From an uncultured Nitrososphaerales archaeon (GTDB taxonomy: Archaea > Thermoproteota > Nitrososphaeria > Nitrososphaerales > Nitrososphaeraceae): DNA of 64,000 bases. The DNA lies in NCBI GenBank assembly GCA_963713605.1, contig CAVQMO010000010.1:1-64000 (forward strand), given 5' to 3'. A program made the position numbers and the translations under genes. The notes under the pieces were generated by a model that had not been told where the DNA came from, did not search any database, and worked only from the letters and a program-made list of their open reading frames with translations. The first letter of the stretch is position 1; each line of letters starts with the position of its first letter. This document shows, piece after piece, positions 20,652-58,174 of this stretch.

Positions 20652-21591
20652 ATGGCCACTGTGTATCGAAGAGGAAAACAATTAGACAATGCATTTCATG
20701 AAGTACCTGCTGAAAAAGAAGAAAGAGATCAATCAACTTTAGGATCATCGAATAGGTATCCCAAAGCTTTCAATGATATCTCTCAGACCAACACATCCAC
20801 AATAGCTAGCTACATCCAATCTATGAAGATAGAGATCAACCTCTCAGATCATTATAGAAAAGATATAATGATATTATTGTGCAAGTTCTCAAAACATAAT
20901 AATAACAAGTTGTTTAGAGACTTGACAAGGCAAGAAATTTTAGCAGGAATCCGATCCTTTTCACAAGTGGATTGGAACGTACAACTTATACAAAGAATAT
21001 CTGCAAAGGTTCTTCAAATGGCTATACTTTCCTTACATAGAACCGTCTAAAAGACCAAAACCAGCTATTCTTGAGAATATTCCTAAATTGAGGAGAAAAG
21101 AACAATCTGTCTACAAGCCTTCGGATCTTTGGACGGCTGAAGATGACTTACTATTCTTGAAATATTGCCCGTCAAAGAGAACGAAATGCTATCACGCGAT
21201 GTCAAGAGATACTAGCTGCAGACCACATGAATTGTTGAAATTGCGCGTCAGAGATGTTGTCATCAAGAATGTTCCCTCCGGAAATAGACAATATGCAGAG
21301 GTTCTGGTAAACGGTAAAACAGGTTCCAGACATATCCCTCTTATAGATTCTTTGCCTTATATTAAGGACTATATCGATCATGAACATCCCCATCCTTCTA
21401 ATCAAGGTGCCGTATTACTATGTGGAGTAGGAAGAAGCTTAGGAAGATCGATAAGTGTGATATCTCTTAATAGGATCTATAACAGATATAAAACAGTATT
21501 ATTCCCAAAGCTGACTTCACGATCCTAGCGTACCGGAAGGAGATAAACAAAAGATAAAGGAATTATTGAAAAAACCTTGGAATCCTTACAT
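20652..21591 (+). pseudogene. Tyrosine integrase int2, N-terminal part, cut at NPYI
   Basis: DPFHKWIGTYN, DTSCRPHE (catalytic R), VNGKTG (K), then ...KIKELLKKPWNPYI, where homology stops; internal indels. Confidence 0.85.
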
Positions 21592-21619
21592 CCAAAGCGC
21601 ATTAAGCGCGTGGAATACA
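21581..21619 (+). repeat. Left junction (attL-like): 11-bp core plus inverted-repeat arm
   Basis: aatccttacat-ccaa-agcgcattaagcgcgtggaataca. Confidence 0.8.
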
Positions 21620-21683
21620 CTACGTATGGTAAACCTCGTAAGAGTTGCCGCCATTTACCATTAGTTCTGAGAGCACGCCTTAT

Positions 21684-22907
21684 TTAACTTGATACGCGGT
21701 TATTTTGCAAACTTCTGATAAACTGTCTTAGTGCATATGCTGCTTCTCCTACCCCTTTGATAGATTTCTTTTCTCCTTGATATGAGATGAGGATCACTTC
21801 TAAACTGTTTATTTTTGCTGCTGTATCAAATTCTGAGGGTTTGATTTCCTCAATGTTGTATCCGTCATCAAGTAACTTCTCAAATTCAGATAGAATTGTA
21901 CAGATAGAGTCTTTTACTCTTGTAATATAATAGCATTTATTACATTGCTTACCACAATAACCATGAATAGTCATTGCTGGCACATTATACTCGTGCTTGC
22001 ATACTTCTTGTTCTTTCCATTTCTTATGCATATATTTCAGATGTTCTTTAAATGATGACAGCTCATTGGATAATCTCTTGTCTATTTTTTCAAGTTCATA
22101 GGCCATTAACGGATATATATGAACAAAAGATCGCCTTAATTCATTGATTGTATCTTTTTCGAGAATATAGCGAGGCCTTTTTTCCAAATATTTTATCTTA
22201 TCTTCATAAGTGAGAGGATAGTCACCAACACTCTTGTAGACCGAGTCCTTAAAAACAGACATTGCATATGGTATTATCGTCAATACAGCTTTACGAACCA
22301 TTTCCTCAAGTAAGAAATCAGTTGATCTATTTGATGTTAATTTAATTCTATTAACGTCCATAATCTGAATAAGAAAGTATGTTATGAAAGCACCAACCTT
22401 ATTAGAAAATTCGAACAGGCTACGTTCTAGTTCGCTGCTTTCATCAAATTTAGGCTCGAAATAGCGTCTATAAATGGTAAAGTCTTTGCAATGAGATGGA
22501 AAAGGAATTATATATTCGACTTTTCTGTCAGTTGTAACTATAAGATCTTTTGTTAAAATATTTTTTCTAAAGTTATTTCCAAAAAGATAGGCATTTAATA
22601 ATTGATCTTTGTATGCTTCTTCTGTAGGAAAATACTTATCTTGTAGGCCTTTGCCTTTTTTAACCAACCCTTCCTTTATTAACTCTTTTATATATGGCCT
22701 TAAATTCTTTGGATCAAGATCTATCTCATTAGATAGTTGATCATGTGATATGCCACCTCTCATGCCGTAGATTCTTATGATTTCTAGAATTGTATTCTTC
22801 TTTTCATGTCTGTACTCGTCAAGATAATTTTTCTTGTTTCTATATTCAATCCGATTCCAATCTGTATGTCGCATCAGAGTACGCCCGAATGATTCGGGTG
22901 GTATCAC
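21684..22907 (-). CDS. Winged-HTH transcriptional regulator-like protein
   Basis: ISHDQLSNEIDLDPKNLRPYIKELIKEGLV; C-terminal CKH...CNKC. Confidence 0.6.
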   Translation of the reverse strand: MIPPESFGRTLMRHTDWNRIEYRNKKNYLDEYRHEKKNTILEIIRIYGMRGGISHDQLSNEIDLDPKNLRPYIKELIKEGLVKKGKGLQDKYFPTEEAYKDQLLNAYLFGNNFRKNILTKDLIVTTDRKVEYIIPFPSHCKDFTIYRRYFEPKFDESSELERSLFEFSNKVGAFITYFLIQIMDVNRIKLTSNRSTDFLLEEMVRKAVLTIIPYAMSVFKDSVYKSVGDYPLTYEDKIKYLEKRPRYILEKDTINELRRSFVHIYPLMAYELEKIDKRLSNELSSFKEHLKYMHKKWKEQEVCKHEYNVPAMTIHGYCGKQCNKCYYITRVKDSICTILSEFEKLLDDGYNIEEIKPSEFDTAAKINSLEVILISYQGEKKSIKGVGEAAYALRQFIRSLQNNRVSS

Positions 22908-22943
22908 CCGAATTTATAGTCTACTAATACATGACTTACCATT

Positions 22944-23108
22944 ATGTCACGTGAATATGAGATTAGAACCGTTCAGGCATTAACAGGAGAAAGAAGTCTG
23001 ACTCTAGTTCTACCAAAACAATATGCAATAGGCTTAGGATTAAAGAAGGGCGATTTCGTGAAGGTTCGTCTACAGAATGACTCTATCGTTATAATGAAGG
23101 CAGGATGA
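22944..23108 (+). CDS. AbrB/MazE/SpoVT-family DNA-binding protein (54 aa, below the ORF-track cutoff)
   Basis: MSREYEIRTVQALTGERSLTLVLPKQYAIGLGLKKGDFVKVRLQNDSIVIMKAG. Confidence 0.8.
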   Translation: MSREYEIRTVQALTGERSLTLVLPKQYAIGLGLKKGDFVKVRLQNDSIVIMKAG

Positions 23109-23241
23109 ATGCACTTGAAAAAAAAGAACTACGATATACAATTCACATTACTTAATCATAATATAGGACAAGCGTATTTCTCGCCAATATTCAATGACAC
23201 TTCAGTGACAGTGACAGGTTACCCTAGTATCTACGTTAAAA

Positions 23242-24195
23242 GTGTTAGAAGGCTATGTTAGAGCTTCGAGTGGTCTAAGCGATGTCATGATATTGCACAT
23301 TCATCATTTAATTCATGAGGAACATAGACCTTTTTCTTATTTAGACTTCATGAAATTTCAGGTGAATGATGAAGAGTATAGAATGGCACACGGTACGTTT
23401 CGAAACAATATCTCCCGGCTAAGAAAAGAAGGTTTGATTGAAATTTCATACAAGTCTAGCATTGTTTTCTATACCCTTAGAGGCATAAAATTTGGTAAAG
23501 CTAGCAGAATAGCAATGACAGATGACCATACGGTGGTCACACCTCACATAACACAGCATCTGAGCAGTAATCTCGTTTATCGAATTATCAAAGACCTACC
23601 ACTGGAAAAGAATTCTGTTCACGATATACGATTGAAGTTTAATGTCCCAGAATTATATCGTATCATTGTTTCCCAAACCACTCATTCTTTGAGTCACGAC
23701 TATACTATTAATCCTGTTAACAAAGACCTCTCTCTGCCGGTATGGCAGATACAGAATCTTGATGTAAGAATCGTAATACATAAGACAAACACGGTCAGCG
23801 TTATCATAGGATGCTCTTATAGTCCGATAGCCATCGATATTGCAGGCGTAATACGGCTTACGAATGCTCTCGCAGTTGTTCAAGAAAGACTATCAAGACT
23901 AGTATCTCAGGATTATAGCGATCCAGGTGATGTCAATAAGATTCCTGATTATATGGAGTGGGTTGTGACTATGTGGCACTTTGGTGCAGATGCTTCTGTA
24001 GAGTATACTGGGGAAAGATTCTCTGTAACTTGGGGAATAGCACAAGATGCAATAATTCGTGTCTACAGCAAAACTATGAGGGATAATAGGACAAGAATAA
24101 GGCTGGAAAGGCAAGAATATCCTAGGATTACTTTAGCACTCGCTCTTGAACAGAAGATCAATCACAACCACGATCAATGGTCTGGAGGCGAATAG
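23242..24195 (+). CDS. MGE protein with N-terminal winged helix (possibly replication-related)
   Basis: HGTFRNNISRLRKEGLIE wHTH; HDIRLKF and WHFGAD motifs. Confidence 0.5.
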   Translation: MLEGYVRASSGLSDVMILHIHHLIHEEHRPFSYLDFMKFQVNDEEYRMAHGTFRNNISRLRKEGLIEISYKSSIVFYTLRGIKFGKASRIAMTDDHTVVTPHITQHLSSNLVYRIIKDLPLEKNSVHDIRLKFNVPELYRIIVSQTTHSLSHDYTINPVNKDLSLPVWQIQNLDVRIVIHKTNTVSVIIGCSYSPIAIDIAGVIRLTNALAVVQERLSRLVSQDYSDPGDVNKIPDYMEWVVTMWHFGADASVEYTGERFSVTWGIAQDAIIRVYSKTMRDNRTRIRLERQEYPRITLALALEQKINHNHDQWSGGE

Positions 24196-24201
24196 AAGTC
24201 C

Positions 24202-25063
24202 ATGCATAATAGAATTCACGATTCTTTGGAGGAGAACAATACCCCAAGTTATTCAGAACAAGAACAAGGATCAAAACCGGAACAATTCACAAGGGAAAAG
24301 AAGCCTCTACCTGAAAATGTAACCGAATACATTCAGAAAGTGAGGGATGAACTCAAGAAATATGAGGAAAACAAGGAGTTCTATGAGACAAGACGTAAAA
24401 AAGAGATTATTCTTGATCTAGCCGCTCTTCTTGAAGAGCATCGATATCCTAAGGATTTGCTTCGATCTATATTCAGCTCGTGAGTTGGGAGATTACATTA
24501 GCACAAGATATATTGAAAAGATTCTTGCAGAAAAATATCTAGACAAGAAGGAAGACAAGGAACAATCTACTAGTCAAATCGCGAACAATACGCGAAATGA
24601 CAATAAAATTCCTATAGAAATATCATCTTCAGGCGAGAGCATAATTGTCAATGGAATAGATGATCAAGGCAACAACAATCCCAATCTGCATGAAGCAAGT
24701 GATCTGAGCTTAGATGTACCAACAGAAGTCAAATCAGATATAGTACTACAAGTAGAGCAAGACACAGGGGATATAATTAGAGTCTTACAAACGCAAGTAA
24801 GTGATTTACAAATGAAGTGTTCCCAATTTGAAGAGTTAGCTAATAAGGGTTCGATATGGAAAGAGAAGTATATTCGATTACAAAAAGAACTAGAACTATC
24901 AAAAACTAACGGAACGAAAATTATAAAGGGAAAGACCGAGATCGAATTCGGTTCTGAATTTCTTCCACTTAGAGTTGAATATGATCCTCAGACGAATCAG
25001 TTTTCGGCATGGTTTCCACAGGGAGTAATTGAACGGCTATTAGCTGGACTAAAACGTAGATGA
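24202..25063 (+). CDS. Hypothetical coiled-coil MGE protein; frameshifted
   Basis: Overlapping ORFs 24202..24483 and 24431..25063. Confidence 0.45.
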
Positions 25064-25166
25064 TGGATTTAGATCAAATTCTTTAGTTTAAAATGATTGA
25101 GTAACTGGATATTACCATAATACAGTAACGTGGCAAGTGTAACACCTGTAACAATAGAATACAATT

Positions 25167-25850
25167 TTGGTTGACCTCATGAAAGATAACATTGTCAAGA
25201 AGACCCCAAATGCAGTGACGACAAAATACTCTGCATTCTTCCTAGATAATGTTACAGGAGTAGTCTATGTCACTTGTGATTCCCCTCAATATGCTTCAGG
25301 CCAGATACGCATGCGTGGCAGAACGAACGGTCAGTATCCGTTTGGATACAAAAAAATGTTGGAAGAAATTTTCGGTAAATGCAGCTCATATGGAGAAGAG
25401 ATTGAGGTTTGTTCTGGCTGGGTTAAGAATAGACCAAACTTAATGACAGTTGACATAAATCCAGACAGAAATCCTGTTCATGTTGGAGATGGTCAATCTC
25501 TGCCCGGAGGTTGGAGCAACCGATTTGAAAGATGGTCTTGTGATCCTCCATATAATAAACGGACTGCTGAGAAGATGTATGGAACCCCGTTACCATCGTG
25601 GTCAAAATTGCTGACTGAAGGTGCTAGAGTGACGAAGCCTGGAGGGTTGTTGTTCTTGCTCTTGGGAGATGTAAATTTTCAATGGCATCCAGAAGGAACA
25701 ACTAGGATAGGATGGCTTGTTCTAAGTATTATCCCGAATCAAGAAGCAAGGGCGATCCACATCTATCTGAAAAATGCTGATGCAATAACGAGAAGTTCAG
25801 TTCAGAAGAAAACCAAGTATCATATTCAGACTTTAAACTCGTACCTCTAA
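25167..25850 (+). CDS. Putative amino (N6-A/N4-C) DNA methyltransferase
   Basis: EVCSG SAM-binding motif, VDINP, catalytic DPPY, RVTKPGG. Confidence 0.7.
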   Translation: MVDLMKDNIVKKTPNAVTTKYSAFFLDNVTGVVYVTCDSPQYASGQIRMRGRTNGQYPFGYKKMLEEIFGKCSSYGEEIEVCSGWVKNRPNLMTVDINPDRNPVHVGDGQSLPGGWSNRFERWSCDPPYNKRTAEKMYGTPLPSWSKLLTEGARVTKPGGLLFLLLGDVNFQWHPEGTTRIGWLVLSIIPNQEARAIHIYLKNADAITRSSVQKKTKYHIQTLNSYL

Positions 25851-25945
25851 TAGTCAGATGAGTCACATATGCCAATCATGCCCCTGCCTCTCTCCTCTTC
25901 TACAGGAATGTATTGCCGAGGAAAATATTTTGTGACCATATTTTT

Positions 25946-26299
25946 CTATATAGCTATACTTGGAGAGTGGCTTCTAATCCCTTCTATCGAAGTTTGATAC
26001 ATAAATGGAAGGGCTTCTTTAGCCAAGGTATTCAGATAATTATTTGATTGAGAAATTAAATATTGAATGTCTCTGCTCACAGTTGATGCATCAACACCTA
26101 ACTCTCTGGCTATTTCATAGCCTTTCAACCCCTTGGTAAGAAGAACCAGAATATTCTCTCTTCTTTCTTTTATTTGTATTCTGTTGTGTGGTCTAGGCAA
26201 TAGATTATTGCAGTTATTGTATTTATTCACATTCGTACTGATAAATATATTGCAAATATCTCGGACCAAACAAAATGTTAAGACCACTTCAAAGGTCAA
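25946..26299 (-). pseudogene. Truncated HTH gene related to the terminase-associated HTH
   Basis: ERRENILVLLTKGLKGYEIARELGVDASTVSRDIQYL; lacks the C-terminal half. Confidence 0.55.
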
Positions 26300-26816
26300 C
26301 TAAGATCTTCTCCTAAGCTCTACAGAATATTCCTTTTGTCAATATCGCCTTTGCCTATGTTGCTTTAGGTGAAGGTGTAACTACAAGAAAAGTTGGCGAC
26401 AGAGTAGGCGTACCTTGGTTGCAATCAATTACATAGTATTTTAGGTCGTCTTACATTCTCCATCGATACATATGGTCTGTCTACTAATATACAGGCATTG
26501 ACAGAAAGGTAGATAGTGTTGCCTGGCGAGATACCTTGTCCATGGAATAGTGAGGGGATCACGTATATTCTATTTGTGCGTATAAGCCTACGAGGAGGAG
26601 AAGGTTAAATGGCTAATATCCAGTCCAATTTTGAAATAGCTATTGTCAGCATGACAATAGTCTGTATTACCATTACAGGATTTCCGTTAGTTTGTATGTT
26701 GGTAAATTCCTTTAAAAGGAGAAGAAAAGTAGAACATTCCACTCAATAATAGATAGATAGCGGGTACGCATTTGACTTCTGGCTTTCATGCTTAGTCACA
26801 TCCTTTTACTTTTGAA

Positions 26817-26872
26817 TTTTTTTATACAAGTGTATACAAGCATGTTTTTTTATACAAGTGTATACAAGCATG
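26817..26872. repeat. 28-bp tandem duplication
   Basis: tttttttatacaagtgtatacaagcatg x2. Confidence 0.85.
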
Positions 26873-27172
26873 TTGGATAGTGATGTCCTCACCATCAACA
26901 GTTTATTTTTATCAGACAATGCAAACCGAATATAATAATACACTACTGATACTATCTATTCAGATTTTTACACCACTAAGAACTTAATTTTATCTAGATG
27001 TAAAAGCTGATACTATCGAGGATATTCTTTTTTCGTGCCTTCCATTTATTGTCAAAAGAGTGTCTACCAACTGGAAAATCGAACTTATTAATTTTATTTA
27101 TGAATTTTGAGTAACTTTATTGCTTATTCTTAAAATAAGCTGTCTGTTGATTTAACTTGTAAGGCCATAAAA

Positions 27173-27358
27173 ATGACTAGTGTTCAAGGATTGGGTTCAA
27201 TGTATGCTATAGACAGTAGCGTTCTGCAGACATGTTATCATCAATGTATCCAGTGTGGAATTATATATGGTTGTAAGCTGGTACGTGCTTCTAATAGGTG
27301 CGATAATCCATTCTATCGTGGTAGATGTAGTATATGTAATGGCGTAAAGACTGTTTGA
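27173..27358 (+). CDS. Small Cys-rich putative Zn-binding protein
   Basis: HQCIQCG...C...C...CSIC. Confidence 0.4.
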   Translation: MTSVQGLGSMYAIDSSVLQTCYHQCIQCGIIYGCKLVRASNRCDNPFYRGRCSICNGVKTV

Positions 27359-27439
27359 ACGTAGAAGTGCTAACAGAGTTACTCGCTTTGGGTCAAAAAG
27401 AGTTTCTCTAAATCATCTTAATATGAGATATTGAATTTA

Positions 27440-27990
27440 TGTCGATCATTGTACAAATGATATTATAGAACAAAGCGAAAAGGAGGAGGAGATCTTAGGA
27501 TGGTTTGACTCTCATGGTATTAATGAGGGGTGGAAGTTAGCATCTGAATTAGTGAATATTGGAATCACTATAGATACGATAAATGATATCGCTAATACAA
27601 TATCGTCGCCAGAAGGAGAGAGCGAGCAGAATCTTAAAGATGTATTAAGCTGGCTTACTACAACTGTTATGGTGGATCGTATGATTTATGAGAATCAAGA
27701 AGCAGCACCACACGTATTAGTGACCTGGTCTCCGGTGAAATCGTGTACTCTTATGTGGATCAGACTCCTCTTCAGAATGTCGATATCCATAGAGGGATAG
27801 AGGGCTCCGTGATCATGAATTCAGCATAAACTAAAGAGAGCTGAAATATCTATAATTCGAGAATATGATCCTAAATTCCACATATTAATGCTTATGAAAA
27901 TGAGCTAAATCAAGTATGGACCAATTTAATAGATAATGCTATTGACGGAATAGGAAAACATGGAACTATTTCGATTCGAACCAAAAATGA
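27440..27990 (+). pseudogene. Histidine kinase remnant
   Basis: N-box ELNQVWTNLIDNAIDG near 27900; multiple stops and frameshifts. Confidence 0.65.
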
Positions 27991-28705
27991 GGCTTGTCTA
28001 CGCTGGTAGAACATTCTACTGGTAGATCAGCGATGATCTTAGGGAAGAAAGTTTACCTGCACCTTTCTCTACACCATCTGACTCCCTCTACTTTCAAGGA
28101 GATCTCTCTACCCGTCATATATGCACCATACTTTTATGCCAAACGGAATCCAGAATTGGTTGACAGACAGTACCCGGCTTTAAGTGGGATAAGAGCCGGT
28201 AGTGCCTGATTATAATTTTCAATCTGAGTCATCATATAGGAAGGATGACTATGAAGGGTCTGGTCTGTATTTGATGATATAGTGTGAATGAGGATGAAAT
28301 AATTCTCTTACACGAAGCTGAACAGTCATACAATAGGATAATAGATGCCATACAAATAATTGCATTAATGGAATGCAAAATGAAACTGGACCATTATATC
28401 ATTTGTCACAGGTCCTCGACGTAAACGATGGTCTGTCCTCAGTAGCAGACAATCATAAAATTTTTGATACTAGAAACTTGTCTCAGGTTAATTTTGAATG
28501 CTCTTCTAAAATTGCATTCCTATTCATACAGAGCATCCTGATATCTTACTTCAATATTCGGCTTACCGTCCAAACTGGAGGTAATAGTGGAAGGTGAATG
28601 TTTATCATGTTATTAAGTTCATGCTTGCGCAAGCCAAGTTATACGACATCATTAGTACCTGACGAATAAATTAATTCCTAGTCGAGTCAGTTGCTTTGAG
28701 GATTT

Positions 28706-28963
28706 TCAGAGTGGGAATTCAACGGCTACATCAGTTTTTGGATAATACTTTTTCACATCCCCTTCGCCATATATGGACCTGAATTTCCTCACTATACCAT
28801 CGACACGATTACTGTCTGTTATTGGTTTACCCCTTTCAGATATTTCTACGCCATTTACAGAAATCTTCAGAATTCGATCGACTAACAGATTCTTATACCA
28901 ACTAGTGTCAGAGCCCTGAACTGGAAGCAGATATAGAGTATCTGCTGTATCTGGTTTGTGCAT
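28706..28963 (-). pseudogene. Split-barrel (F420-dependent nitroreductase-like) protein, 5'-truncated
   Basis: LYLLPVQGSDTSWYKNL...FRSIYG. Confidence 0.5.
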
Positions 28964-29312
28964 GAGGGCTGGTCACCCTAGCCCCTGCCACATTGTCATC
29001 ATTTTCCTTTTGTTGCATTAAGGATGAAATCTGCAATTTCGGTTGGCCATATGTCCGGGCAGCTATCAGATTGAATGTTTCGGGAGTAATTACTAACCGA
29101 GGGGATACTATCCAGTTTGTTCACTCTGACTCAGCAGAAGCAGTGTTATTAGTATTTGGATTTAATCGTGTTATTATTTGGATTTGACAGAAAGAAATTA
29201 ACCATTGGTACGGCGAAATTAACCAGCAGCGCGAAAGAGATATTGAGTCAGCGAAAACAGAGATGTAAAATTGGTTTGCTTTATATGCATGTACCATGAA
29301 TAAATCTGGCTT

Positions 29313-29512
29313 ATGAAAACACTAAATGGCGAAACAATAACTGGAATTGCACTGATCTTTCTTGCCATTCTATTCCTTTATGTAAACTCGGTAAACCCAG
29401 TCTGGGCTCTAATTCGGCCAGCAACTTCTTGATTCTGGCTATAGGAGGTGGATTCCTCGCCCTAGGAATCATAACTATGAAGAGACAAAAACAGACAGTT
29501 AGCCACGCATAA
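29313..29512 (+). CDS. Small two-helix membrane protein; frameshifted
   Basis: MKTLNGETITGIALIFLAILFLY...FLILAIGGGFLALGII. Confidence 0.45.
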
Positions 29513-30235
29513 CAGCCTAAATAATTAAAAATTATCAGTGCGTACTGACCATATTGATTTACAGAGCTGATAATATCGACAGATATAATCCGCTATAATT
29601 GCAAGAATCTGAAATAACGTTCAAAAGAATTCTAGATAAATCCAAAAAGACTGACACAGCTACATGAAAGAATTGATGATGATCCAATTGGGGACCACGG
29701 GATATGCATTTATTCGACAATCCACAAAATCAGCTTCTTCAAATATCTTGCATCTGATAGCATCTGTTCTTTGTTGTGAACTGTGAGTGTGGCACTTTAC
29801 AGCTTGTAAGATAAAAGATAAATCAATAAAGCCTTGCCTGTTCAAACAAATGGACTTACTAAACTAAAACAAGATATAATACAGCAAGTAATTGTGACTA
29901 GAGTCGGATCAAGATCTTGAATATATCAAATTTCTAGTTTCTACTCTTAATCTATTAAATTCTGGCAGACTAAGACCTTTTGAAAATTGGTGAGTACCAC
30001 AGTGGAAGACAGGACAGCTAACCTGGATAAAGAGCTGACTAGTATGATAATCAAGTTATGGCGTTAATGAACTCGAAAGCCTAAATATTTAGTTTTTCGG
30101 GTGAGTCGTGCTTTGATAACAAAGTTGATTGAGATGGATGAACGGTAGGTTTATCATACTTTAAGATAGAATAGAAATATCTACAATCGTAAAAATGATT
30201 TTTATATCGCAAGTACTCAATCAAAGAAGAAATTA

Positions 30236-46684: not shown

Positions 46685-46691
46685 ACTCATA

Positions 46692-48027: not shown

Positions 48028-48033
48028 TCTAGA

Positions 48034-50508: not shown

Positions 50509-50606
50509 ATGAGTCAAATCATTTTATTTTTAAAGTCAAATCGGCGGACTTGGTCTAGAAGTTTACGTGTTTACACAAAAGAACAAAAAGGGTATAATAC
50601 TTGAAG

Positions 50607-52013
50607 TCAGCTAACTATTCCTGATCTACGTGCAAATCGATTAATGATTTCACTAATTAACTTAGTTCCTAGATACAGTAGCTCAATTTTTGCAAACTCA
50701 TTAAATGAATGAATGTTAGAAAAAATATCGGAACAACCTATTGCAACACATGGTGCCTTAGTTGATTGGACAAGAAGGCTCATAGGACCGCTTCCAGCTG
50801 ACGATAAATTTATTATCGGATTTGAGCCAAAAATTACACGCCCAGAACTTATGACGGTCTTTACAAAGGGATCTGTAAATTTGGTTCTTGAAGGTGCAAG
50901 CCCATGTACGAATTTTACTGAAATATCCGTAAATCCTGCTCTCGATAGGTGTGTTTTCAGCCTATTAAATTGTGATTTTGGAGTCATGTCAGGGACTAGA
51001 CGAAGGTCTATTACTGCTCTAGCCGTTGATGGCAAAACGGTTTTTGCACCTTTGCCTGAATAACCAGATACAATTCCAGAGATGTTGCATGTAGGTCTTT
51101 CTGCTAACATCCTCCTTGATTCATTTCTACGTAACCAAGGTGCAAGACGGGCAAGTCTATACTTTGTTTTGAATTCCATTTCATCAAACACTGGTTGGAT
51201 TGTTGTAAAACGAAGCTCATCTGCATCTAATGAGCGAAAATCACGATACCAATCCTTCACGGTTACGGTTCCCGTTTTTTCATCCCATATAGTGCTCAAG
51301 GCCTTAACAATAGTCCAAGCAGGATTGGAAACAATAGGAGCTAGACTTGAATGTATATCAGTTGAGGGACCGCATGCAGTCAATTCAACATAAAGAAGAC
51401 CCTTCATACCCAAATTTACAATAGGTCTAAGTTGAGTATCCACATATCCAAATTCCCAAATTATTCCATCACACTTCACCTTATGTCCAAGCATTTTAAG
51501 ATAGCTTCCTAAATGTGGACTACCGATCTCTTCTTCCCCTTCAACAATGAATTTTATATTACATGGTACATCTCCAGTCACTCGCACTATCGATTCCACA
51601 GCCTTTATGCGGGCCATCAGTTCACCTTTGTCATCAGCGGATCCTCGACCAAATATTTTGTTATCAATTATATCTCCACTGAAAGGATGTCGTTCCCACC
51701 GATCAAGTGGTTCTATTGGTTGGACATCATAATGATTATAGAATAAGATAGTCCTTCCGTTTGGACTAGATTTTGATGTTATTTCACCATATACCAGCGG
51801 AGGAGGCGATTCTATGTTATTTTTATTGAAGTATAACAATTCTGATTTTATATTCGCCTTGCGCATTATATCTCGAACTAATTTCGCACACTCCTCCAGT
51901 CTCTGATTCTTGACTGAAATACTAGGAATTTGAATCAAAGATTTTAGATCGAATATTAGAGCATCAATTTCTGGCTTGTGCAAATTCGAAATGGATCTCA
52001 TTTCTTTAGACAT
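50607..52013 (-). CDS. M20 family metallopeptidase/deacylase (ArgE/DapE-like)
   Basis: YNHYDVQP, GRGSADDKG, EGEEEIGS, HSFNE. Confidence 0.9.
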   Translation of the reverse strand: MSKEMRSISNLHKPEIDALIFDLKSLIQIPSISVKNQRLEECAKLVRDIMRKANIKSELLYFNKNNIESPPPLVYGEITSKSSPNGRTILFYNHYDVQPIEPLDRWERHPFSGDIIDNKIFGRGSADDKGELMARIKAVESIVRVTGDVPCNIKFIVEGEEEIGSPHLGSYLKMLGHKVKCDGIIWEFGYVDTQLRPIVNLGMKGLLYVELTACGPSTDIHSSLAPIVSNPAWTIVKALSTIWDEKTGTVTVKDWYRDFRSLDADELRFTTIQPVFDEMEFKTKYRLARLAPWLRRNESRRMLAERPTCNISGIVSGYSGKGAKTVLPSTARAVIDLRLVPDMTPKSQFNRLKTHLSRAGFTDISVKFVHGLAPSRTKFTDPFVKTVISSGRVIFGSNPIINLSSAGSGPMSLLVQSTKAPCVAIGCSDIFSNIHSFNEFAKIELLYLGTKLISEIINRFARRSGIVS

Positions 52014-52519
52014 ACAACGATCATCAACTGGGGTATCTTCTTAATAGATTCCAATTAACCATTTGCTATCATGATGAATAATCTATATTTTTTAATGTTA
52101 TTTTAGCAAGATATTCTATCCACATCATTAGAAGAGCAAAGAAGGCTATGCCGATAAGTCACATTATAACATAGAAGGGAATTCTAAATGCTATTGCAAA
52201 ACTACTCTCGGATCTCGCTTGTATGAAATCCTCATCCTGCGATTCATATAAATCTTAGGAACCTCAATTAACATTCAATCAAAATATTTTTTGAAGTTAA
52301 GATCCAGTTTATATCAGATAGCACTAATTTTTATTCGATCTTAAATAATTCTAAATTAAGATTAGATTCTGAACAACAGGATAGATGCCTTTGACAGATT
52401 CGAGAATAAATTACAATTACTATTGAAAGAATCATTACATTGTTATACGAACTCCTTCAAATTGTATAGTAATTATCCTGGAAAAATCAGGTGAAATAGT
52501 CTAAATTGAAGTGGTGGTC

Positions 52520-53020
52520 TTAACATTTGCGCGCCCGGTCAGGAATGCTGTCCCGACGGTAAGTGTGCTGCACCCGGTCAATGTTGTGGCGTTGGTTCGT
52601 GTCCCCATCTTACTTTTGTTGTAAGGATCAGAACTGTTGTTCTCCAGGTGACACATGTTGTAATGACGGGACATGCTCAAAACCAGGTGAGCCCTGTTGC
52701 GGTTTTGGCAACTGTCTATCAGGGCAGAAATGTTGTCCTGATGGGAAATGTGTTGATCCGGGTGATTGTTGCAGCGACTCAGATTGTCCATCAGGTAAGC
52801 AGTGCTGTGACGGTAAATATATTCCTGCGAGTGCGTGTTGCTATGATTTTGATTGTTCACCAGGTACGCACTGCTGTAATGGTAAATGTGATGATGTTGC
52901 AGAAACGCACATTGTTCAACAGGTAAGAAATGTTGTAATGTTAAACACAACATAGCACAGCTGGTAACTCTAAACATAACATGGTCCTTAGACAATAGGG
53001 GATATTTTTATAGCTGATTA
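52520..53020 (+). CDS. Cysteine-rich repeat protein; frameshifted, boundaries uncertain
   Basis: Repeated CC-x-x-G-x-C and CPSGKQCC units. Confidence 0.55.
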
Positions 53021-53039
53021 ATGACTAGAAGTTACTAAA

Positions 53040-53957
53040 ATGAGCAATAATCAAGGATCCTTTGAGGCCGAATTCAAACTAGATCCACGTCCACCGAGTG
53101 AAGGTGGACTTACCGATGAGCATTGTAAGGCAAAACTTAAACAGATACAAGATATAGGGAGGCATCGACATGAACAAGTTCGTATAGAATTCCCTACGAT
53201 AAATGATGGGAATACTAGCGCAATTTATACAGTAACTGTATTTCACGCTGATGCAGGTAGTGTAATTCTAGGGCACAAAATTCCAAACTTGAGCTGCAGA
53301 CTCACTGAGAACAAATGCATAGGCGTGGTGAAAGCTCAAATCATGCTTGAAGGTCTTGATGATGATAAGGCAGAGGAACTCGGTGAACTTGTTGAACATT
53401 TATGTCACGAAGGGCAAAATCGTAAACTCGTTGTTATTGCACCGCACGGGGGCGAAATTGAACCGTGGACTGATAAGCAGGCAAAATACGTCGGGAATCA
53501 TCTACCACATGATCGCGCATCTGTATGGTTATGTAAGGGTTTTAGTAACCCAAATCTCTCCGATGCACACGAGCGTTGGCATATCACTTCAACAGAAATT
53601 AGCGAGATATCGTTCCCTAAGCTTGGGACGATTTTTGAACCGAAGTTTGAATATGCAATTGCCTTTCATGGTTGGACTCAAGATTCCATTTGTGTCGGAG
53701 GAAACGCCGAAAGTGCGGATGCTGGTTTAATAGGGGAAATTAAGGATGCAATCAAGCAAAAGCTACAGGGTACAAATATTGACGTCGAGGATACCGCTTG
53801 TCCTGGAGGGTTTAATGGTGATGACCCATGCAATATCGTAAACCGCCTAGGAATAAAGGGTATACAAATTGAGCAATGCAAGAAAGCTCGTCGAGATCAC
53901 CATGATAAAATTGCACAGGCAGTTGTTGATGTTATCGGCTCCCGAATCAATGTCTGA
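53040..53957 (+). CDS. Poly-gamma-glutamate hydrolase family protein (PghP/YmaC-like)
   Basis: IAPHGGEIEPWT, WHITS, AFHG, NIVNR and IQIEQ motifs. Confidence 0.8.
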   Translation: MSNNQGSFEAEFKLDPRPPSEGGLTDEHCKAKLKQIQDIGRHRHEQVRIEFPTINDGNTSAIYTVTVFHADAGSVILGHKIPNLSCRLTENKCIGVVKAQIMLEGLDDDKAEELGELVEHLCHEGQNRKLVVIAPHGGEIEPWTDKQAKYVGNHLPHDRASVWLCKGFSNPNLSDAHERWHITSTEISEISFPKLGTIFEPKFEYAIAFHGWTQDSICVGGNAESADAGLIGEIKDAIKQKLQGTNIDVEDTACPGGFNGDDPCNIVNRLGIKGIQIEQCKKARRDHHDKIAQAVVDVIGSRINV

Positions 53958-54391
53958 ATGCATTGCAATGGCCTTTGGGACTTCGTTCAATAAAATATAG
54001 CAGAGTTTCAATTACTCGTTACCTACCTTCACTACTGAGCTGTAAGAATATAAGAAAAAGCTACTGAAAGATAGACACCTTCAATCCAGACAGTAGCAAA
54101 CCTGACAGCGGTCGGCTCATCCGGTCCTGACTCTTATATTGTAAATATACAAGGATTCTGGGATAGAGTGACGAAAAATTGTGTTTCTTCAAGAAAAGTT
54201 AAATTTGATAAACCTAGAGCCTTCATGTAATACCATAGATAATGCTACAGGTAAGATATGTCACTCCAATCTGGACATTTAGGCTCCATATGTACGCAGT
54301 AAGAGGGTCAAGAGATGATGGACTGGTCCATGCTACGTCTTCAGATATTGAAAAATACAAGTTACCCTCCTAATACGAGTAAGTTGAAAGG

Positions 54392-55368
54392 TTGAGCACA
54401 GAAGTGGAAAGGCTGCGATGGAGAAGGAATACAGTATTAGAATTATCTAGCGAAGGCCGTAACCAACCACAGATTGCTTCTATACTAAAAGTTAGCCTAG
54501 GTACGGTAAATAGAGATTTACAGCACTTGAAGAGGTTGGCGAAGGCAAACATATCAAAATACATTAACGAGACACTGCGACTGGAATACGAAACTTGTCT
54601 AATCGGACTAAATGCAATATTAGCAAAGACTTGGGATATTGCTAATAATCCACACTCAAATGAACGGGATAGATTACAAGCAATTTCTGTTAGCATGCAA
54701 GCATATTCAATACAAGCATGATGATAGGGAGGAGTATGGGAATAGATGTTGTATGGGGAGATACGTCAAAGTTTGTATTGTTATTACTCAATATAGAAAC
54801 AACAAGGTAGAGGTCTTCTATGCAGAGAGCTTTGACAAGCCACAAATGAATAAGATAATAAATCATATACTACAACAGAAACAGAAACACCAGATAACGA
54901 AGCTGTACGTAGATGGTGCAAATCCTGAAGTCATCAGAGAAATAAAGAGTAGAATAGATGAGTACGAGAACTATCATTACTACACGGAAGAGCAGACTCT
55001 GGCTAATGCGTACAGGTGACATGCAGATCAGACCTGTCAACTTCCAGAAGAGACACAGGGAAATGCTACAGTGGACTTATACGTTGATGTCGAAGAGATT
55101 TATGAAGATCCATTCAACATTACAGAAGCTGATAGTATCTCTTCGGACAGCAGTTATATCAGATGAATGGAGACTAGATAAAGAAAAGACATCTCATAAT
55201 GATATACTCGATTCCTTTAGACTGGCATTATGCAACTTTGAACCACCAAAGAATGCATTATCTCAATCAACACAATTTTTAGAGTCTGAATATCCAGACG
55301 GTGGAGCAGAGGAGATGAATATGCAAAATATGACCCCCAGAAGAAAGAATGAAGACACAGAGTTTTGA
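54392..55368 (+). pseudogene. Second HTH plus terminase-like copy with the ATPase domain deleted
   Basis: HTH closely similar to 11326..11789 fused near 54710 to SMMIGRSMGIDVVWGDTSKF...HNDILDSFRLALCN. Confidence 0.75.
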
Positions 55369-56436
55369 TATTCAAAGAAAAATTGGAAGAATATCACTGA
55401 ACAAAGTTGATATTTCTTAGCATAGTTCGTTTATATTAAAAATTTAGCATAGTTGATATTTCTTATCGAACCTGACTCTTCCGGGTCCTGTCAACGTATT
55501 TTTTGCCACTTCAGTAATTGCTCCCAGTATCTCCCTTTTTCTTTCGGAGATTTGATTTGCTAATATTGTTTGAACAGGACCGGTAACGATGCGAAGGATC
55601 TCCTGCAGTTTGCAGAATCAAGTTATAGTAATCTGTTGATGAGTTATGCGGAGATTTTTGTATATTCTAAATAAAGTGTACCTAAAACTCGTGTCAACTA
55701 GGATATTGGTATCTCTAATCTAATTGATACTGTCGTGGAGCAGTAGTTGACAGATACTTTTCTCGATCCTAGTAGGTTGAACAAATGAAAGCTAGCTCTT
55801 GCCAAGAAAATAGAAAAGTTCTTCCCCAGATGGTGCCTTAGTATCATTAAAATATCATTATCCGTAAAGCGCACATCTCTTGATCTTCTCTGATTTCACA
55901 GCATCATCCTTAAAATAGTAAAAATATTTGATAATCATTATCACACCGTCAGGATTACGACTCAAAATCATTTTTGATCCACCATTATATACCTGGTCTA
56001 TTGACTCAAGAGGTTTTATTAATCTCAACTGTGTGAGTAAACGAATCCATGAATAATGATGAACGAGATTTTGAATGGGGTGAAGTGATAACCAAACCTG
56101 TCTATACAAGCGACAACAAACATGTGGGTCACGTAGATGGACTAGAAGCTGGTCACTGTGCTACATCTTTGAGAATGTCAAAGGAATCTTCCAACATTTG
56201 AGCACTATCAAATTTTATATTTGGTTTGATCATTTCTATTAGTTCTGGAATTTTTTCACTGGAATTAATAATGGCTAATAATCTAACACCGCTATCGAAA
56301 ATCAAAAATGCTGTTTTGTAGCCCTAAATCATATGGAATATATGTTTTAGATTCTTATAAATCCAAATTGTATAATGTCTCTGGTACCGTTTCCTCTTTG
56401 TTACCATTTTGAACTAATAACTGAATGTTATTACTG

Positions 56437-57684
56437 TCATCTCTCTAGATTTTGCATTCTCGCTGTCAAAGCCATTAATTGGTCGGAAAGATGTGCTATG
56501 GCATCATCCTTCATCTTGTCCCTTTCTCTAAATGACTGGTTTAGTTCTTCTAGTTCTTCTATTTTGCTTTGAATATCTGCACCCTGTCTCTCTAGCTGAT
56601 GCACATTTAGAAACGTAAGATATGGTTCTATCTTTCTGAATATCTCTACCTTCTCAGAATCTTTCTTTCTCCAATATGTTGAACCCGAATGTCCTATAAA
56701 ATATTCAGAAAAATCAAAATAACCAAGATCGGATATTGTTGTCTTTACAAACCTTCTGAACGAATGAAGAGTTATTTGTCTTCTATTTTGATTGCTATCT
56801 TCTCTTTCTCCTCTACCCATTCTGTCAAGTGTTTTGGCGAAGGCTTTTGCAATGTCATCATAGATGCCATCAGGATTTGGCATTCTCTTGGTTTGGTAAA
56901 CTGCAAATACAAGATCGGTCTCTTCTCTAGAAGGCGTTCTATATTCTGTGATTGTACTTCCGTCTTTGTTATGACAAACCCTTCTTTTTCTATATTTGTA
57001 GCTTAGCCAGGACTTTAGCTGTTGTGTTACCTCATCGGTAAGAAATACAATTCTATCTGCTCTAGTTTTAGTAAATTCTCCTCGCACAAAAACATGGGCT
57101 GGTTTCGAATCTAAATCCAAATCTTTAACTCGAACAGATAATGCTTCTACTGCTCTGAATCCACCAGCCGCTAAAAACATAACATATGTCTTCAAGCGTA
57201 TATCTGAACATGCGTTTAGAATATCAATGATATCTTCCTTTGATAATGCTTCCTTATTCTTCCTAACTATTTTTGGCAATCTTACCTTTAGTTTGAATTT
57301 TCTAGGACTAATATCAATGTCTGAATATTCTAAAAAGTTCTTGATAGTAATAACATGGTTCTTTAATGAATTTGGGGCAATAGTATTGTTACTTTCTTGC
57401 TTTAGGAATAGTATGTATCCAGTAAGGAGATCGTAAGGATCTATCTTTGTCTTCTTGATTTCTGTGACAATATTTTGGATTCCAAGACCGTATCTATCAT
57501 TAGTATATTTGCCGAATTTCTTCAATCTTTCATTGTCCTTTTGAGCAGTTGATTCATTTACTACTGCTACATTAGTCAGATATCTGGATACTACAGAGTC
57601 GTCATTCTTCGAGAGCACTCGCTTGTTGGTATGAGGAGTTACTACAATAGATTCAGTTGAACCTGTTCCAGCGCTAGCTTTCAA
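56437..57684 (-). CDS. Tyrosine recombinase/integrase (int3), intact
   Basis: GGFRAVE (R), FTKT (K), LHSFRRF, IGHSGSTY; starts about 65 bp from the right direct repeat. Confidence 0.9.
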   Translation of the reverse strand: MKASAGTGSTESIVVTPHTNKRVLSKNDDSVVSRYLTNVAVVNESTAQKDNERLKKFGKYTNDRYGLGIQNIVTEIKKTKIDPYDLLTGYILFLKQESNNTIAPNSLKNHVITIKNFLEYSDIDISPRKFKLKVRLPKIVRKNKEALSKEDIIDILNACSDIRLKTYVMFLAAGGFRAVEALSVRVKDLDLDSKPAHVFVRGEFTKTRADRIVFLTDEVTQQLKSWLSYKYRKRRVCHNKDGSTITEYRTPSREETDLVFAVYQTKRMPNPDGIYDDIAKAFAKTLDRMGRGEREDSNQNRRQITLHSFRRFVKTTISDLGYFDFSEYFIGHSGSTYWRKKDSEKVEIFRKIEPYLTFLNVHQLERQGADIQSKIEELEELNQSFRERDKMKDDAIAHLSDQLMALTARMQNLER

Positions 57685-57721
57685 TTAGTGCTAATATTCT
57701 TATTGATATTATTAAGCATTT

Positions 57722-57759
57722 TGTATTCGACGCTTTTAATGCACTCCTAATCCTTACAT
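57722..57759 (+). repeat. Right junction (attR-like): inverted-repeat arm plus 11-bp core
   Basis: tgtattcgacgcttttaatgcact-cct-aatccttacat. Confidence 0.8.
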
Positions 57760-58174
57760 AAGAAGACACTCAGCATTGACAGAGAAATCCTCCTTTCTAA
57801 AGGAACATATTTTAAGGCAACATGCAGGCTGGTCGCCCAGATCTCAGATGCATCTAAAGTATTTACATTATTTCGGTAATGAATCATCAGAATCAATACT
57901 TCAAGAATATGGGATACTACCAAAAAATAATCGAGAAACAGACCTTCTAAAGCCTAAGCAATGCCCTAATTGTAATGAGCCGAACAAACCAGATTCAAAA
58001 TTCTGTGCCAAATGTAGGATGGTTCTAACTTATGATGCCTACAATGAAACGATTGAAGATAGGCAAACGAAGGATAAACAGATAGAATCCTTAGTTAAAA
58101 ATCAAGAAAAATTTGAACAGCTGATCCAATCACTTATCGATTCCGGGCAATTGAAGCCTTTGAAGAACCAATAA
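57749..58174 (+). pseudogene. Tyrosine integrase int2, C-terminal part with Zn ribbon
   Basis: NPYIRRHSALTEK...HAGW...KYLHY...CPNC...CAKC; begins exactly at the direct repeat. Confidence 0.85.

Follow-up and report, generated by a model that had tools for sequence, protein, structure and literature searches.

An integrase gene in two pieces

The DNA analysed here (the window) is a stretch of 64,000 nucleotides from an uncultured Nitrososphaerales archaeon. It contains an integrase gene, int2, whose two parts lie on the same strand at either end of a 36-kb interval that carries a different integrase gene, int3 (Table 1). The int2 N-part ends with AAACCTTGGAATCCTTACAT (KKPWNPYI), and the C-part begins with AATCCTTACATAAGAAGACAC (NPYIRRHS). 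The initial annotation had placed the stop of int2 at 21591 and its restart at 57749; both points are borne out by the coordinates and by homology, as the break falls where similarity to the uninterrupted paralogs of the same genome (C3:104931.., C12:91377.., and C1:1620..) stops and restarts. The position of the break is in the codons of box II (Y-x-x-R) of int2. Deleting 21592–57759 brings the frame back across NPYIRRHS, as had been proposed, and the protein P0001, an uninterrupted int2 allele with 98% identity to the window int2, is continuous there.

Table 1. Genes and sequence features of the locus, in window coordinates.
Feature	Position	Strand	Remarks
Host island attL, 19-bp direct repeat CTTAGTCAAGAATAAGTTA	20583..20601	+	3' end of alaX
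int2 N-part, three-frame pseudogene	20652..21591	+	SAM-like DNA-binding domain, catalytic R-I, Lys
attL core of the int3 element	21581..21591	+	AATCCTTACAT, codons N-P-Y-I
Inserted int3 element, 36,168 bp (one core copy counted)	21592..57759	.	The genome's two copies diverge outside these points
Left arm, terminal imperfect inverted repeat	21596..21619	+	20/24 matches to reverse complement of 57722–57745
407-aa winged-helix-motif protein	21687..22907	-	PF13412 E 3.3e-4, below cut-off; in 5.8-kb left module
54-aa AbrB/MazE-fold protein	22944..23108	+	PF04014 E 9.5e-7, 29.1 bits (cut-off 24.7)
ParB-like protein, cargo or maintenance function	42342..42812	+	Domain scans
int3, intact tyrosine integrase, 415 aa	56437..57684	-	PF00589 E 3.5e-13; XerA model E 2.2e-19
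Right arm, terminal inverted repeat	57722..57745	+	Kept beside int3 in other genomes
attR core of the int3 element	57749..57759	+	AATCCTTACAT
int2 C-part	57749..58174	+	R-II, Trp-III, Tyr nucleophile, C-terminal zinc ribbon
Rest of host island in window	58175..64000	.	Continues to C10:109951
Small VapB/RHH-like ORF	58604–58756		Host island
Prim-Pol-like ORF, 368 aa	59255–60361		Atlas feature search, score 0.96–0.97

The N-part itself does not form the single open frame assumed earlier. It is spread over three frames (20652–~20945, 20944–21513, and 21515–21591) and, relative to P0001, carries a 26-nt deletion at ~20945 and one additional base at 21513; residues 107–296 of P0001 are 98% identical to it. 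The additional base is absent from contigs of the runs X2 and X6. The soil run X2 also provided an empty allele, a 369-nt contig that equals 21281–21591 with 0 mismatches and then continues from 57760 (29/30 letters), while run X6 yielded a contig across the occupied attL. The empty allele could represent the ancestral state instead of an excision product.

The 11-mer AATCCTTACAT, previously noted at both ends of the interval, has exactly two occurrences in the window (21581 and 57749), each on the plus strand. It encodes N-P-Y-I, the start of the Y-x-x-R box, and is situated at the edge of the best-conserved DNA within the int2 gene family. Alone, the 11-mer is not significant (with ≤1 mismatch allowed, 5 matches stand against an expectation of 2.34, and as many occur in 11 of 100 shuffles); its placement, at the very points where the homology to uninterrupted int2 genes ends and restarts, makes it more than a chance repeat. 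Inside the two cores lie 24-nt arms that form a terminal inverted repeat, whose score (20/24 matches) was reached by 0 of 2000 shuffles. Within this genome, both arms are present only at the ends of its two int3 elements.

The host island

int2 sits 50 nt inside the left end of a larger island in the 3' end of alaX (C10:20602–109951, approximately 89 kb including the insert), the second copy of the 19-bp repeat lying outside the window at C10:109933–109951. In the relatives G446 and G362, alaX runs directly into genes that are found here at C10:~109.9 kb, and the exact 19-mer is present at both island breakpoints. The nesting is thus confirmed by the position of int2 within this repeat-flanked island, in agreement with the earlier assignment of int2 to a host element reaching rightward, whose limits are now given by the 19-bp repeats. 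Of the two genes previously ascribed to the host element, an RHH-like ORF is present, while the Prim-Pol likeness of the second comes only from the Atlas feature search, with no Pfam match to the 368-aa ORF at 59255. Neither ORF has paralogs elsewhere in the genome.

The inserted element and its second copy

The 36-kb insert has direct repeats at its ends and an integrase gene beside one of these ends, and in relatives the site is empty; by sequence, these features mark it as a site-specific integrative element. The intact, divergent integrase gene noted earlier at the right junction, int3, starts 64 nt from the right core and encodes the predicted active site R...HxxR...H...Y. Its profile (A2) matches XerA (5hxy) with E 2.7e-13, pairing TLHSFRR with TPHVLRH and GHS...Y with GHA...Y, and these matches place Int3 in the tyrosine recombinase superfamily. 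Mobile element regulators had been proposed for the left end; the AbrB fold scores above its Pfam cut-off, and the winged-helix gene is there but its domain match falls below. The winged-helix-motif protein, encoded in a 5.8-kb left module that the C12 element has as well, has a 99% identical copy at C12:264799–265968. The middle of the element (35.3–56.4 kb) is absent from the C12 copy and includes genes of a cellular kind (a NuoB copy and an M20 peptidase), so that the 36 kb may be composite. Recombination was not observed; this assembly contains no free circular attP, and the arm pattern gave 0 matches in IMG/VR.

The second copy, on contig C12 of the same genome, consists of an int2-like N-part (263765–264649), a 65.5-kb element with int3, and an int2-like C-part at 330156. 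Its int3 is 94–95% identical to that of the window, and the two elements share 99.5% identity over 21592–27387 on the left and 91.7% over 56428–57759 on the right. This similarity extends to the core on both sides, whereas protein identity drops to about 68% in the int2 flanks, a pattern that identifies the C12 copy as a second independent insertion. The int2 target on C12 has an N-part with an in-frame stop and a C-part that breaks off after ...YFGNES and has lost the zinc ribbon.

int2 belongs to a large family of divergent tyrosine recombinases

An AlphaFold2 model of the family member P0005 (alignment A3; pLDDT 90.1, pTM 0.80) has Cre, XerH, lambda Int, XerA, and Tn1549 Int as its top Foldseek matches (probability 1.00, E about 1e-7, 340–380 aligned columns). 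The A3 alignment of 50 sequences shows no variation at R324, H325, and Y356 and conservation of 90% or more at R199, E202, K231, Y321, and W346. Consistently, the family profile matches XerA (4a8e), pairing NPYIRRHS with TPHQLRHS, GW with GH, and Tyr with Tyr; the second stretch, with the last two pairs, is weak alone, the whole match having E 4e-9. The gathering score of PF00589, 27.1 bits, is attained by five of six family members that were picked for having a precomputed hit, the sixth standing at 27.0, while P0005, P0001, and the window int2 fragments fall short of it. Judging from the structural model and the catalytic residues, int2 is a divergent tyrosine recombinase with the active site R…YxxR…W…Y.

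Passages of PMC5861418 distinguish SSV-type integrases, with the tetrad R...KxxR...Y, from pNOB8-type integrases, with the tetrad R...YxxR...Y and a gene that is not split on integration. By tetrad and geometry, int2 resembles the pNOB8 type and may belong to it: it has R...YxxR...Y (Y321), and int2-family genes are contiguous in integrated copies (on C3, C12, and C1 here and at 8 loci in G314 and G381). The nearest viral records that we found are integrases of Archaeoglobi pleomorphic viruses, with 27–29% identity. The family comprises 744 clusters at 50% identity (E ≤ 1e-30), and this genome holds about ten copies or fragments, so that targeting of int2 genes could be common.

Recurrence in other genomes and metagenomes

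Within the genus, 6 of 14 genomes carry the right-arm pattern, as do 3 of 7 genomes of a second genus, with reversed-pattern controls at 0; 2 metagenome contigs have it as well. Ten of 13 right ends, from 8 genomes of the two genera and metagenome contigs (the G260 locus left out of the count), adjoin an int2 C-half that is 53–98% identical to that of the window. At the other three (L052, L091, and L097), the adjoining sequence is not int2; thus, either the targeting is not absolute or those loci are rearranged. int3 is the sole conserved gene adjoining the ends and is present at 13 of the 13 right ends examined. Left junctions can be read from proteins: among 120 int2 homologs listed, 6 switch after NPYI to a tail, (R/I)xAL(S/N)xWN, encoded by the left end of the element, and attL sites matching such tails are found in G381 (L053) and G314 (L069).

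The int3 proteins that abut int2 (n = 5) form one clade (SH-aLRT 99) within a family whose remaining members have a similar arm beside other flanks. No int2 C-half was found at 26 loci with int3 homologs of ≤66% identity (0/26, G260 locus left out). Since relatives insert likewise in other genomes, these elements seem to form a family of mobile DNA whose landing site is the integrase gene of a second family. The initial annotation had proposed that the conserved catalytic motif of another element's integrase serves as attB, that int3 homologs should be sought beside int2 half-genes along with empty sites, and that these homologs should be associated with the core and arms. The recurrence in 8 genomes and metagenomes, the empty allele in run X2, and the grouping of the int2-abutting int3 proteins all agree with this proposal.

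Proposed mechanism and alternative explanations

Very probably, an int3-type element inserted by site-specific recombination into the int2 gene of a larger island. The 36.2-kb element would have entered through recombination between its own attP, an 11-bp core between the arms of the 24-nt imperfect inverted repeat beside int3, and the 11-bp stretch in the gene. The N…C order and the element ends that are conserved while the flanks diverge indicate insertion into the gene, the geometry that had been recognised before. The catalyst was most likely the element's own tyrosine integrase, Int3, and we infer that int3 elements are still active. Int2 is the integrase of the approximately 89-kb alaX island, and the insertion leaves Arg-I and Lys on its left side and Arg-II, Trp, and the Tyr nucleophile on its right. 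This separation of the catalytic residues inactivates Int2 and would consequently lock the host island in place, unless a paralog complements; immobilisation of the island is thus a reasonable expectation.

Another reading has Int2 itself making the junctions in place of Int3, by recombination of an attP inside its gene with a site in the 36-kb DNA. Split integrase genes are a hallmark of SSV-type integrases (passages of PMC8371274), the thaumarchaeal element NitEve-E3 is reported with such a gene (passages of PMC6563490), and the recombination of two circles is topologically symmetric. However, self-splitting would give the order C…N and not the N…C seen here, where the N-part reads into the interval; integrated int2-family copies are contiguous, the host island's own att repeats lie outside the int2 ORF, the tetrad has Y321 instead of the SSV-type lysine (PMC5861418, in part), and sister int3 proteins bear the same kind of arm beside other targets. 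We consider this origin highly unlikely and have rejected int2 as an SSV-type (suicidal) integrase. A transposition that duplicates its target site, driven by a casposase, a DDE transposase, or some other enzyme that is not a tyrosine recombinase, would make the 11-mer the duplicated target and the inverted repeats the transposon ends, and would recall the thaumarchaeal casposons, which are site-specific and make duplications (passages of PMC6563490). In the three insertions with both junctions known (including that of G314, whose halves lie on two contigs and were paired by inference), the 11-mer is the same at both ends yet differs from insertion to insertion; conservative recombination thus requires an attP that already matched attB, while a duplicative mechanism would yield matching end cores without such a pre-match. 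A spacer match between partners is nevertheless required, and normal, for tyrosine recombinases such as Cre and FLP. Transposition is hardly credible, as scans with Pfam, PHROGs, and NCBIfam detected no Cas1 or transposase domain among element ORFs of at least 55 aa, for which reason a transposon or casposon identity was rejected, as int3 is the only conserved gene at the ends, and as the inverted repeats begin 3–4 nt from the 11-bp direct repeat and do not abut it.

The element might also be maintained like skin in sigK, its regulated excision restoring int2 and controlling the mobility of the host island, as the initial annotation had suggested. The frame restored across NPYIRRHS, the occupied allele of run X6 that lacks the additional base at 21513, and the intact int3 speak for such a switch. 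Regulated excision was not seen, and both int2 targets of this genome have further lesions (the 26-nt deletion and additional base in the window, the stop and the lost zinc ribbon on C12), so that excision would restore no working gene here; a programmed intervening element of the skin/nifD type was rejected on this ground, and the switch is very unlikely. A chimeric join in this metagenome-assembled genome deserves next to no credence: the assembly is 87.5% complete with 4.5% contamination and several frameshifted genes, and contig C7 is a variant copy of C10:109–124 kb, but an independent contig of run X6 spans attL and the same type of junction occurs in 7 other genomes and in metagenome contigs.

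Relation to known systems

The element is a variant of a known phenomenon, site-specific integration into another mobile element. The usual integration sites are tRNA genes or the ends of housekeeping genes, thought to be chosen for their conservation and for harmless insertion; here, what is conserved is a stretch that encodes the active site of an integrase belonging to another element, and its interruption does the cell no harm but disables the rival. The skin element in sigK and the nifD element have N…C geometry and exact frame restoration on excision, which is developmentally programmed, and their targets are kept functional. The int3 element has the geometry in common with them, whereas both int2 targets here have decayed. 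Tn5053/Tn402 “res-site hunters” are transposons that, helped by the resident resolvase, insert close to res sites; like the int3 element, they aim at another element's recombination module, but without site-specific integration into an integrase coding sequence.

More tentatively, the int3 clade may be regarded as possible “integrase hunters”, whose attachment site would have become fitted by evolution to the catalytic-box codons of a rival and very abundant family of integrases, codons that cannot drift because the enzyme needs them. If so, hunters would gain a safe, ubiquitous landing site and disarm a rival element, a hyperparasitism between mobile elements that bears on island fixation in Nitrososphaeraceae genomes. 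Through the targeting of int2, large islands of soil ammonia oxidisers could commonly become locked and then decay. The natural pair of short att sites, the compact integrase, and the naturally varying cores also offer a test bed for target choice with an archaeal 11-bp core.

Streptococcal IMEs have specific integration sites in the oriT of ICEs or in one of their conserved genes and, like the int3 element, combine their own tyrosine integrase with nesting and an attB in a conserved sequence of a distantly related mobile element (passages of PMC5704250). They are bacterial, target the oriT nic site or a conjugation gene, and are thought to ride a still-mobile host (same passages), whereas the int3 element is archaeal and targets the catalytic box of the host integrase, thereby destroying the host's mobility gene. 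SSV1-type “suicidal” integrases likewise leave an archaeal integrase gene in two pieces flanking integrated DNA, but these are split by their own attP and lie as int(C)...int(N) inside the element (passages of PMC8371274; PMC7253208); here, the order is N…C with both pieces outside the insert, which itself encodes a second integrase, this one intact, and the gene that is split is part of another element.

In the literature searched, including passages of PMC6563490 and PMC8371274, we found no description of an integrase gene as a specific archaeal attB; the supplementary target tables of PMC6563490 could hold such a case. The thaumarchaeal elements of Krupovic et al. (2019) resemble those described here in their short att sites and, as for the host island at alaX, in 3'-distal integration into protein genes with stop-codon replacement; cryptic ones reach 98 kb, and one nested pair is reported, NitEve-E7 in NitEve-E6, with the site of the nested element known only approximately (passages of PMC6563490). 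Unlike the int3 element, none has a target in another element's integrase gene in these passages. A sister int3 locus (L026) adjoins a Zn-ribbon gene, and a Zn-finger gene, whether or not the same one, is a target named in the passages of PMC6563490.

An insertion in the catalytic region of int2

The frame of int2, the integrase gene of the host island, is broken as the initial annotation stated: it stops at KKPWNPYI (21591) and restarts downstream at NPYIRRHSALTEK. The window covers the first 64 kb of contig C10, which measures 1.13 Mb and belongs to a 4.09-Mb genome in 15 contigs (87.5% complete, 4.5% contamination), whose named database homologs come from Nitrososphaeraceae. The N-part also lies where it had been placed, but its description as a single open frame does not hold, as it consists of three frame pieces. 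Compared with P0001, an uninterrupted int2-family protein, it has a deletion of 26 nt near 20945; it also has an extra base at 21513 that is missing from contigs of the soil run X2 and of run X6.

An exact search finds the 11-mer core, AATCCTTACAT, only at the two junctions of the window. With one mismatch allowed, it gives five matches against 2.3 expected, a count reached in 11 of 100 shuffles; as a bare repeat it carries little weight. The interval has no compositional signature (GC 0.385 inside versus 0.394 and 0.381 outside), and no tRNA genes are present in the 64-kb window.

Five agreeing lines of evidence, namely paralogs, a second copy, an empty allele, structured ends and recurrence, make it very probable that the interval arose by insertion of an element. 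Uninterrupted int2 paralogs, with ...KPWNPYIRRHS... contiguous, are found on three other contigs of the genome (C3:104086-105401, C12:90805-91801 and C1:1070-2105). Contig C12 also carries a second occupied copy. There AATCCCTACAT closes an int2-like N-part (263765-264649), and DNA identical to that of the window from 21592 onward follows. At a distance of 65.5 kb lie a copy of int3, with a protein 94-95% identical, and the same right end, then AATCCCTACAT once more and an int2-like C-part. Besides their terminal modules, the two elements have two further inner blocks in common (97% and 94.6% identity, inverted orientation), while the two interrupted int2 genes are ~68% identical as proteins. 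Near-identical ends with divergent flanks are the pattern expected when elements of one type insert twice independently.

The window's int2 allele also occurs without the interruption: P0001 is 98% identical to the window's int2 over residues 107-296 and is continuous through NPYIRRHS, and a 369-nt X2 contig matches 21281-21591 without mismatch and then 29 of 30 letters of the sequence after 57759. An X6 contig covers the occupied left junction (21375-21724). The left arm of the element matches the reverse complement of the right arm at 20 of 24 positions, a score reached in none of 2000 shuffles, and each of the two elements has these arms at both ends, while the genome shows them nowhere else.

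Features of the int2/int3 region on contig C10
Feature	Position	Strand	Remark
int1	18297-19112	-	272 aa; C-terminal catalytic part only
Island repeat, left	20583-20601		CTTAGTCAAGAATAAGTTA; end of alaX
int2, N-part	20652-21591	+
Core, left	21581		AATCCTTACAT
int3 element	21592-57759		36,168 bp
Left module	21592-27387		99.5% identical to C12 element
Left arm	21596-21619
28-mer duplication	26817-26872		TTTTTTTATACAAGTGTATACAAGCATG; perfect tandem
Repeat run	32981-33265		(PE/PQ)n on minus strand
NuoB gene	39167-39800	-	N-terminal part in another frame
594-aa ORF	43480-45264	+
Right module	56428-57759		91.7% identical to C12 element
int3	56437-57684	-
Right arm	57722-57745
Core, right	57749		AATCCTTACAT
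int2, C-part	57749-58174	+
368-aa ORF	59255
Gene pair	63570-65220	-	Leaves window
Island repeat, right	109933-109951		CTTAGTCAAGAATAAGTTA; synteny resumes

The two integrases

The int2 fragments and the full-length, uninterrupted family member P0005 fall below the Pfam integrase model, the cut-off of which is reached by five of six other int2-family members. Searches for solved relatives gave no match with P0005 or with profile A1, a shallow alignment. Profile A3, built from 50 diverse int2 members, retrieved archaeal XerA (4a8e, E 4e-9) together with XerH, XerD and Cre; its alignments place N-P-Y-I-R-R-H-S on T-P-H-Q-L-R-H-S, G-W on G-H and a conserved Tyr on the nucleophile. A first int2 structure predicted by AlphaFold from 30 closely related sequences was of low quality (pLDDT 55.7) and was set aside. 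The model from the 50-member alignment reached a pLDDT of 90.1, and only tyrosine recombinases appear among its closest structural neighbours (probability 1.00).

The conserved set of int2 comprises R199, E202, K231, Y321, R324, W346 and Y356 (P0005 numbering). Its tetrad, R...YxxR...Y, is the one given for pNOB8-type integrases, as opposed to R...KxxR...Y of the SSV type, in the accessible text of Wang et al (PMC5861418). Int3, a relative of XerA, is a recombinase with the canonical R...HxxR...H...Y residues; hhalign pairs it with int2 at only 55% probability, with a doubtful register in box II. By the catalytic alignment, the core encodes N319 to I322, and the insertion lies between Arg-I and Lys on one side and Arg-II, Trp-III and the tyrosine on the other. 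In an alignment of 11 uninterrupted int2 genes (780 nt analysed), the best-conserved 11-nt windows precede the core by 9, 6 and 3 nt; the core's own conservation is in the top 6% (higher scores in 46 of 805 windows). The int2 family is large, with 744 clusters at 50% identity at E ≤ 1e-30 and 4052 at E ≤ 1e-10.

Recurrence in other genomes

Of 401 genomes examined from the order, 65 gave Int3 homologs; at most four candidates per genome were scored. The initial annotation had suggested looking in related genomes for int3 homologs beside an NPYIRRHS half-gene, and G314 and G381 are two that have them. Among the 30 loci listed, the int2 C-half lies directly upstream of int3 only in these genomes, where Int3 identity is at least 80%; it adjoins none of 26 homologs of at most 66% identity (an unpublished G260 locus left out).

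The right-arm pattern occurs in six of 14 genomes of the genus, in three of seven of G381's genus and on two metagenome contigs; the reversed control pattern gave no matches, and IMG/VR contained none of the right-arm pattern. We examined 13 right ends (two from this genome, nine from seven other genomes and two from metagenome contigs, G260 left out). The int2 C-half follows in ten, 53-98% identical to the window's, and the continuation is unrelated to int2 in the other three (L052, L091 and L097). Left junctions are also seen, as the tail (R/I)xAL(S/N)xWN, which directly follows NPYI in 6 of 120 int2 homologs listed, corresponds to the translated left arm. Genomic attL sites (left attachment sites) of this form were located via the int2 N-part in G381 (locus L053) and G314 (locus L069); BLAST of the left-end DNA 21592-21900 gave no match in either genome.

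Thirty homologs were placed in a fast maximum-likelihood tree, from which L037, L042, L047 and L052 were left out; in it, the five Int3 homologs abutting int2 form one clade (SH-aLRT 99) nested among homologs with other flanks. Sister homologs keep a similar arm beside their genes (TTGTATT, ~11 nt, ATGCA). For example, the integrases of loci L025 to L028 are 62-66% identical to Int3, have the arm TTGTATT-N11-ATGCA and adjoin other sequences. One of them, L026 (G365:C506), abuts a zinc-ribbon gene, calling to mind NitEve-E2, whose target is a Zn-finger gene (PMC6563490).

At L053 (G381:C49:9634-11965), an int3-family gene, 52% identical, has as its divergent neighbour an int2 gene into which another element has inserted at NPYI, amounting to three integrase-related events inside 3 kb. 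A synonymous escape of unoccupied int2 genes through AAC or TAT in the core was considered and rejected, since occupied cores with TAT exist and AAT was imposed by the search pattern.

Proposed mechanism and consequences for int2

Int3 would recombine an attP, ordered right arm, CCT, core, CCAA, left arm, with the int2 core by conservative site-specific recombination. That Int3 is the catalyst is likely, although we hold this slightly less firmly than the insertion itself. The 11-mer is the same at both ends of each insertion with both ends known, reading AATCCTTACAT in the window, AATCCCTACAT on C12 and AATCTGTACAT in G314 (halves on two contigs, paired by inference), and it differs among the three at central positions. 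Matched ends with varying centres are expected if the recombinase needs identity between partners in the crossover region, as is required in Cre and FLP spacers. A duplicative mechanism also predicts identical 11-mers at both ends and would give the same pattern, but no transposase or Cas1 was found in any ORF of at least 55 aa of the element. A different explanation, in which int2 was split by its own integration, is argued against by the att repeats of the host island, which lie outside the int2 ORF.

Insertion of the int3 element into int2 resembles the behaviour of streptococcal IMEs, which, according to the part of PMC5704250 consulted, integrate site-specifically into the oriT or conserved genes of ICEs; in both cases a conserved stretch of one integrative element harbours another. 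Nesting has been described before among thaumarchaeal elements, with no defined site in the available portion of PMC6563490. One element inside another is already known; of an integrase gene as the specific target we found no report in the literature searched, including the accessible sections of PMC8371274.

Both interrupted int2 genes of the genome bear further damage: besides the lesions of the window copy described above, an in-frame stop breaks the N-part of the C12 copy, whose C-part is cut off after ...YFGNES. As other genes of the genome are also frameshifted (a NuoB copy and a thermosome gene), assembly errors may account for the single-base shifts in int2; the deletion of 26 nt, the stop and the truncated C-part are lesions of another kind. 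Because both targets carry additional lesions, the excision-controlled switch proposed initially is not supported for the window and C12 copies, and the simplest consequence of the insertion is loss of the host's integrase.

Contents of the int3 element

No virion, conjugation or replication hallmark was detected in the element with PHROGs, NCBIfam and Pfam. Its annotated genes encode a winged-helix protein, an AbrB-fold protein, methyltransferase-like proteins, ParB, an M20 peptidase, a poly-gamma-glutamate hydrolase and a NuoB copy. Three more NuoB copies (95-100% identical protein) lie at C10:836452, C10:431267 and C12:98944; a housekeeping respiratory gene has thus been multiplied and carried on mobile DNA.

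The product of the 594-aa ORF, without a family match, is acidic over its first half and basic and amphipathic in the middle; its tail is encoded by 15-/24-nt tandem repeats (SQPYSPEA / YSPEA units), where the opposite strand also reads open. A run of GGTTCA and related 12-nt repeats sits in a small ORF of a block in common with the C12 element, and the duplicated 28-mer lies near the end of the common left module.

The host island

int2 starts 50 nt past alaX, the gene of an alanyl-tRNA-editing-like protein with a DHHA1 domain. In genomes G446 and G362, alaX runs straight into genes found here at C10:~109.9 kb and also on the variant contig C7. The exact 19-mer CTTAGTCAAGAATAAGTTA at the end of alaX recurs where this synteny resumes, which identifies int2 as the end-proximal integrase of a ~89.3-kb island, 36.2 kb of it the nested element. 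Nesting within a larger int2-bearing element, as initially proposed, is thereby confirmed, the island being delimited by the 19-bp repeats. The island is seated at the 3′ end of a protein gene, whose stop codon it replaces; other thaumarchaeal elements do likewise in the available text of Krupovic et al (PMC6563490).

The RHH and prim-pol genes assigned to the island fared less well: the first ORF is VapB/RHH-like but below cut-off, and the 368-aa ORF resembles Prim-Pol clusters by Atlas feature search only (score 0.96-0.97), a lead to its identity. ORFs just right of the int2 C-part have no paralogs within the genome. Beyond the window, the island contains cell-like genes for TFIIB, a glycosyltransferase, GSDH and hydrolases, and a frameshifted thermosome gene.

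C7 (14.3 kb) is a mosaic, ~99% identical to several pieces of C10:109269-123700 in reverse order and with gaps, and carries an int2-like N-part (C7:1582-2311); it is probably a strain variant of the 109-124 kb region. A third integrase gene, int1, lies upstream of alaX. Homologs occupy the same place in G446 and G362; the one in G362 is ~2.4 kb away from counterparts of the genes at 60.3-61.6 kb of the window, and both sides of alaX therefore seem to be landing sites. The gene pair at the window's right edge, the in-window part of which has no Pfam match, may be an uncharacterised insertion sequence; over ten paralogous copies of it are spread through the genome, and one immediately precedes the int2 paralog at C12:90805.
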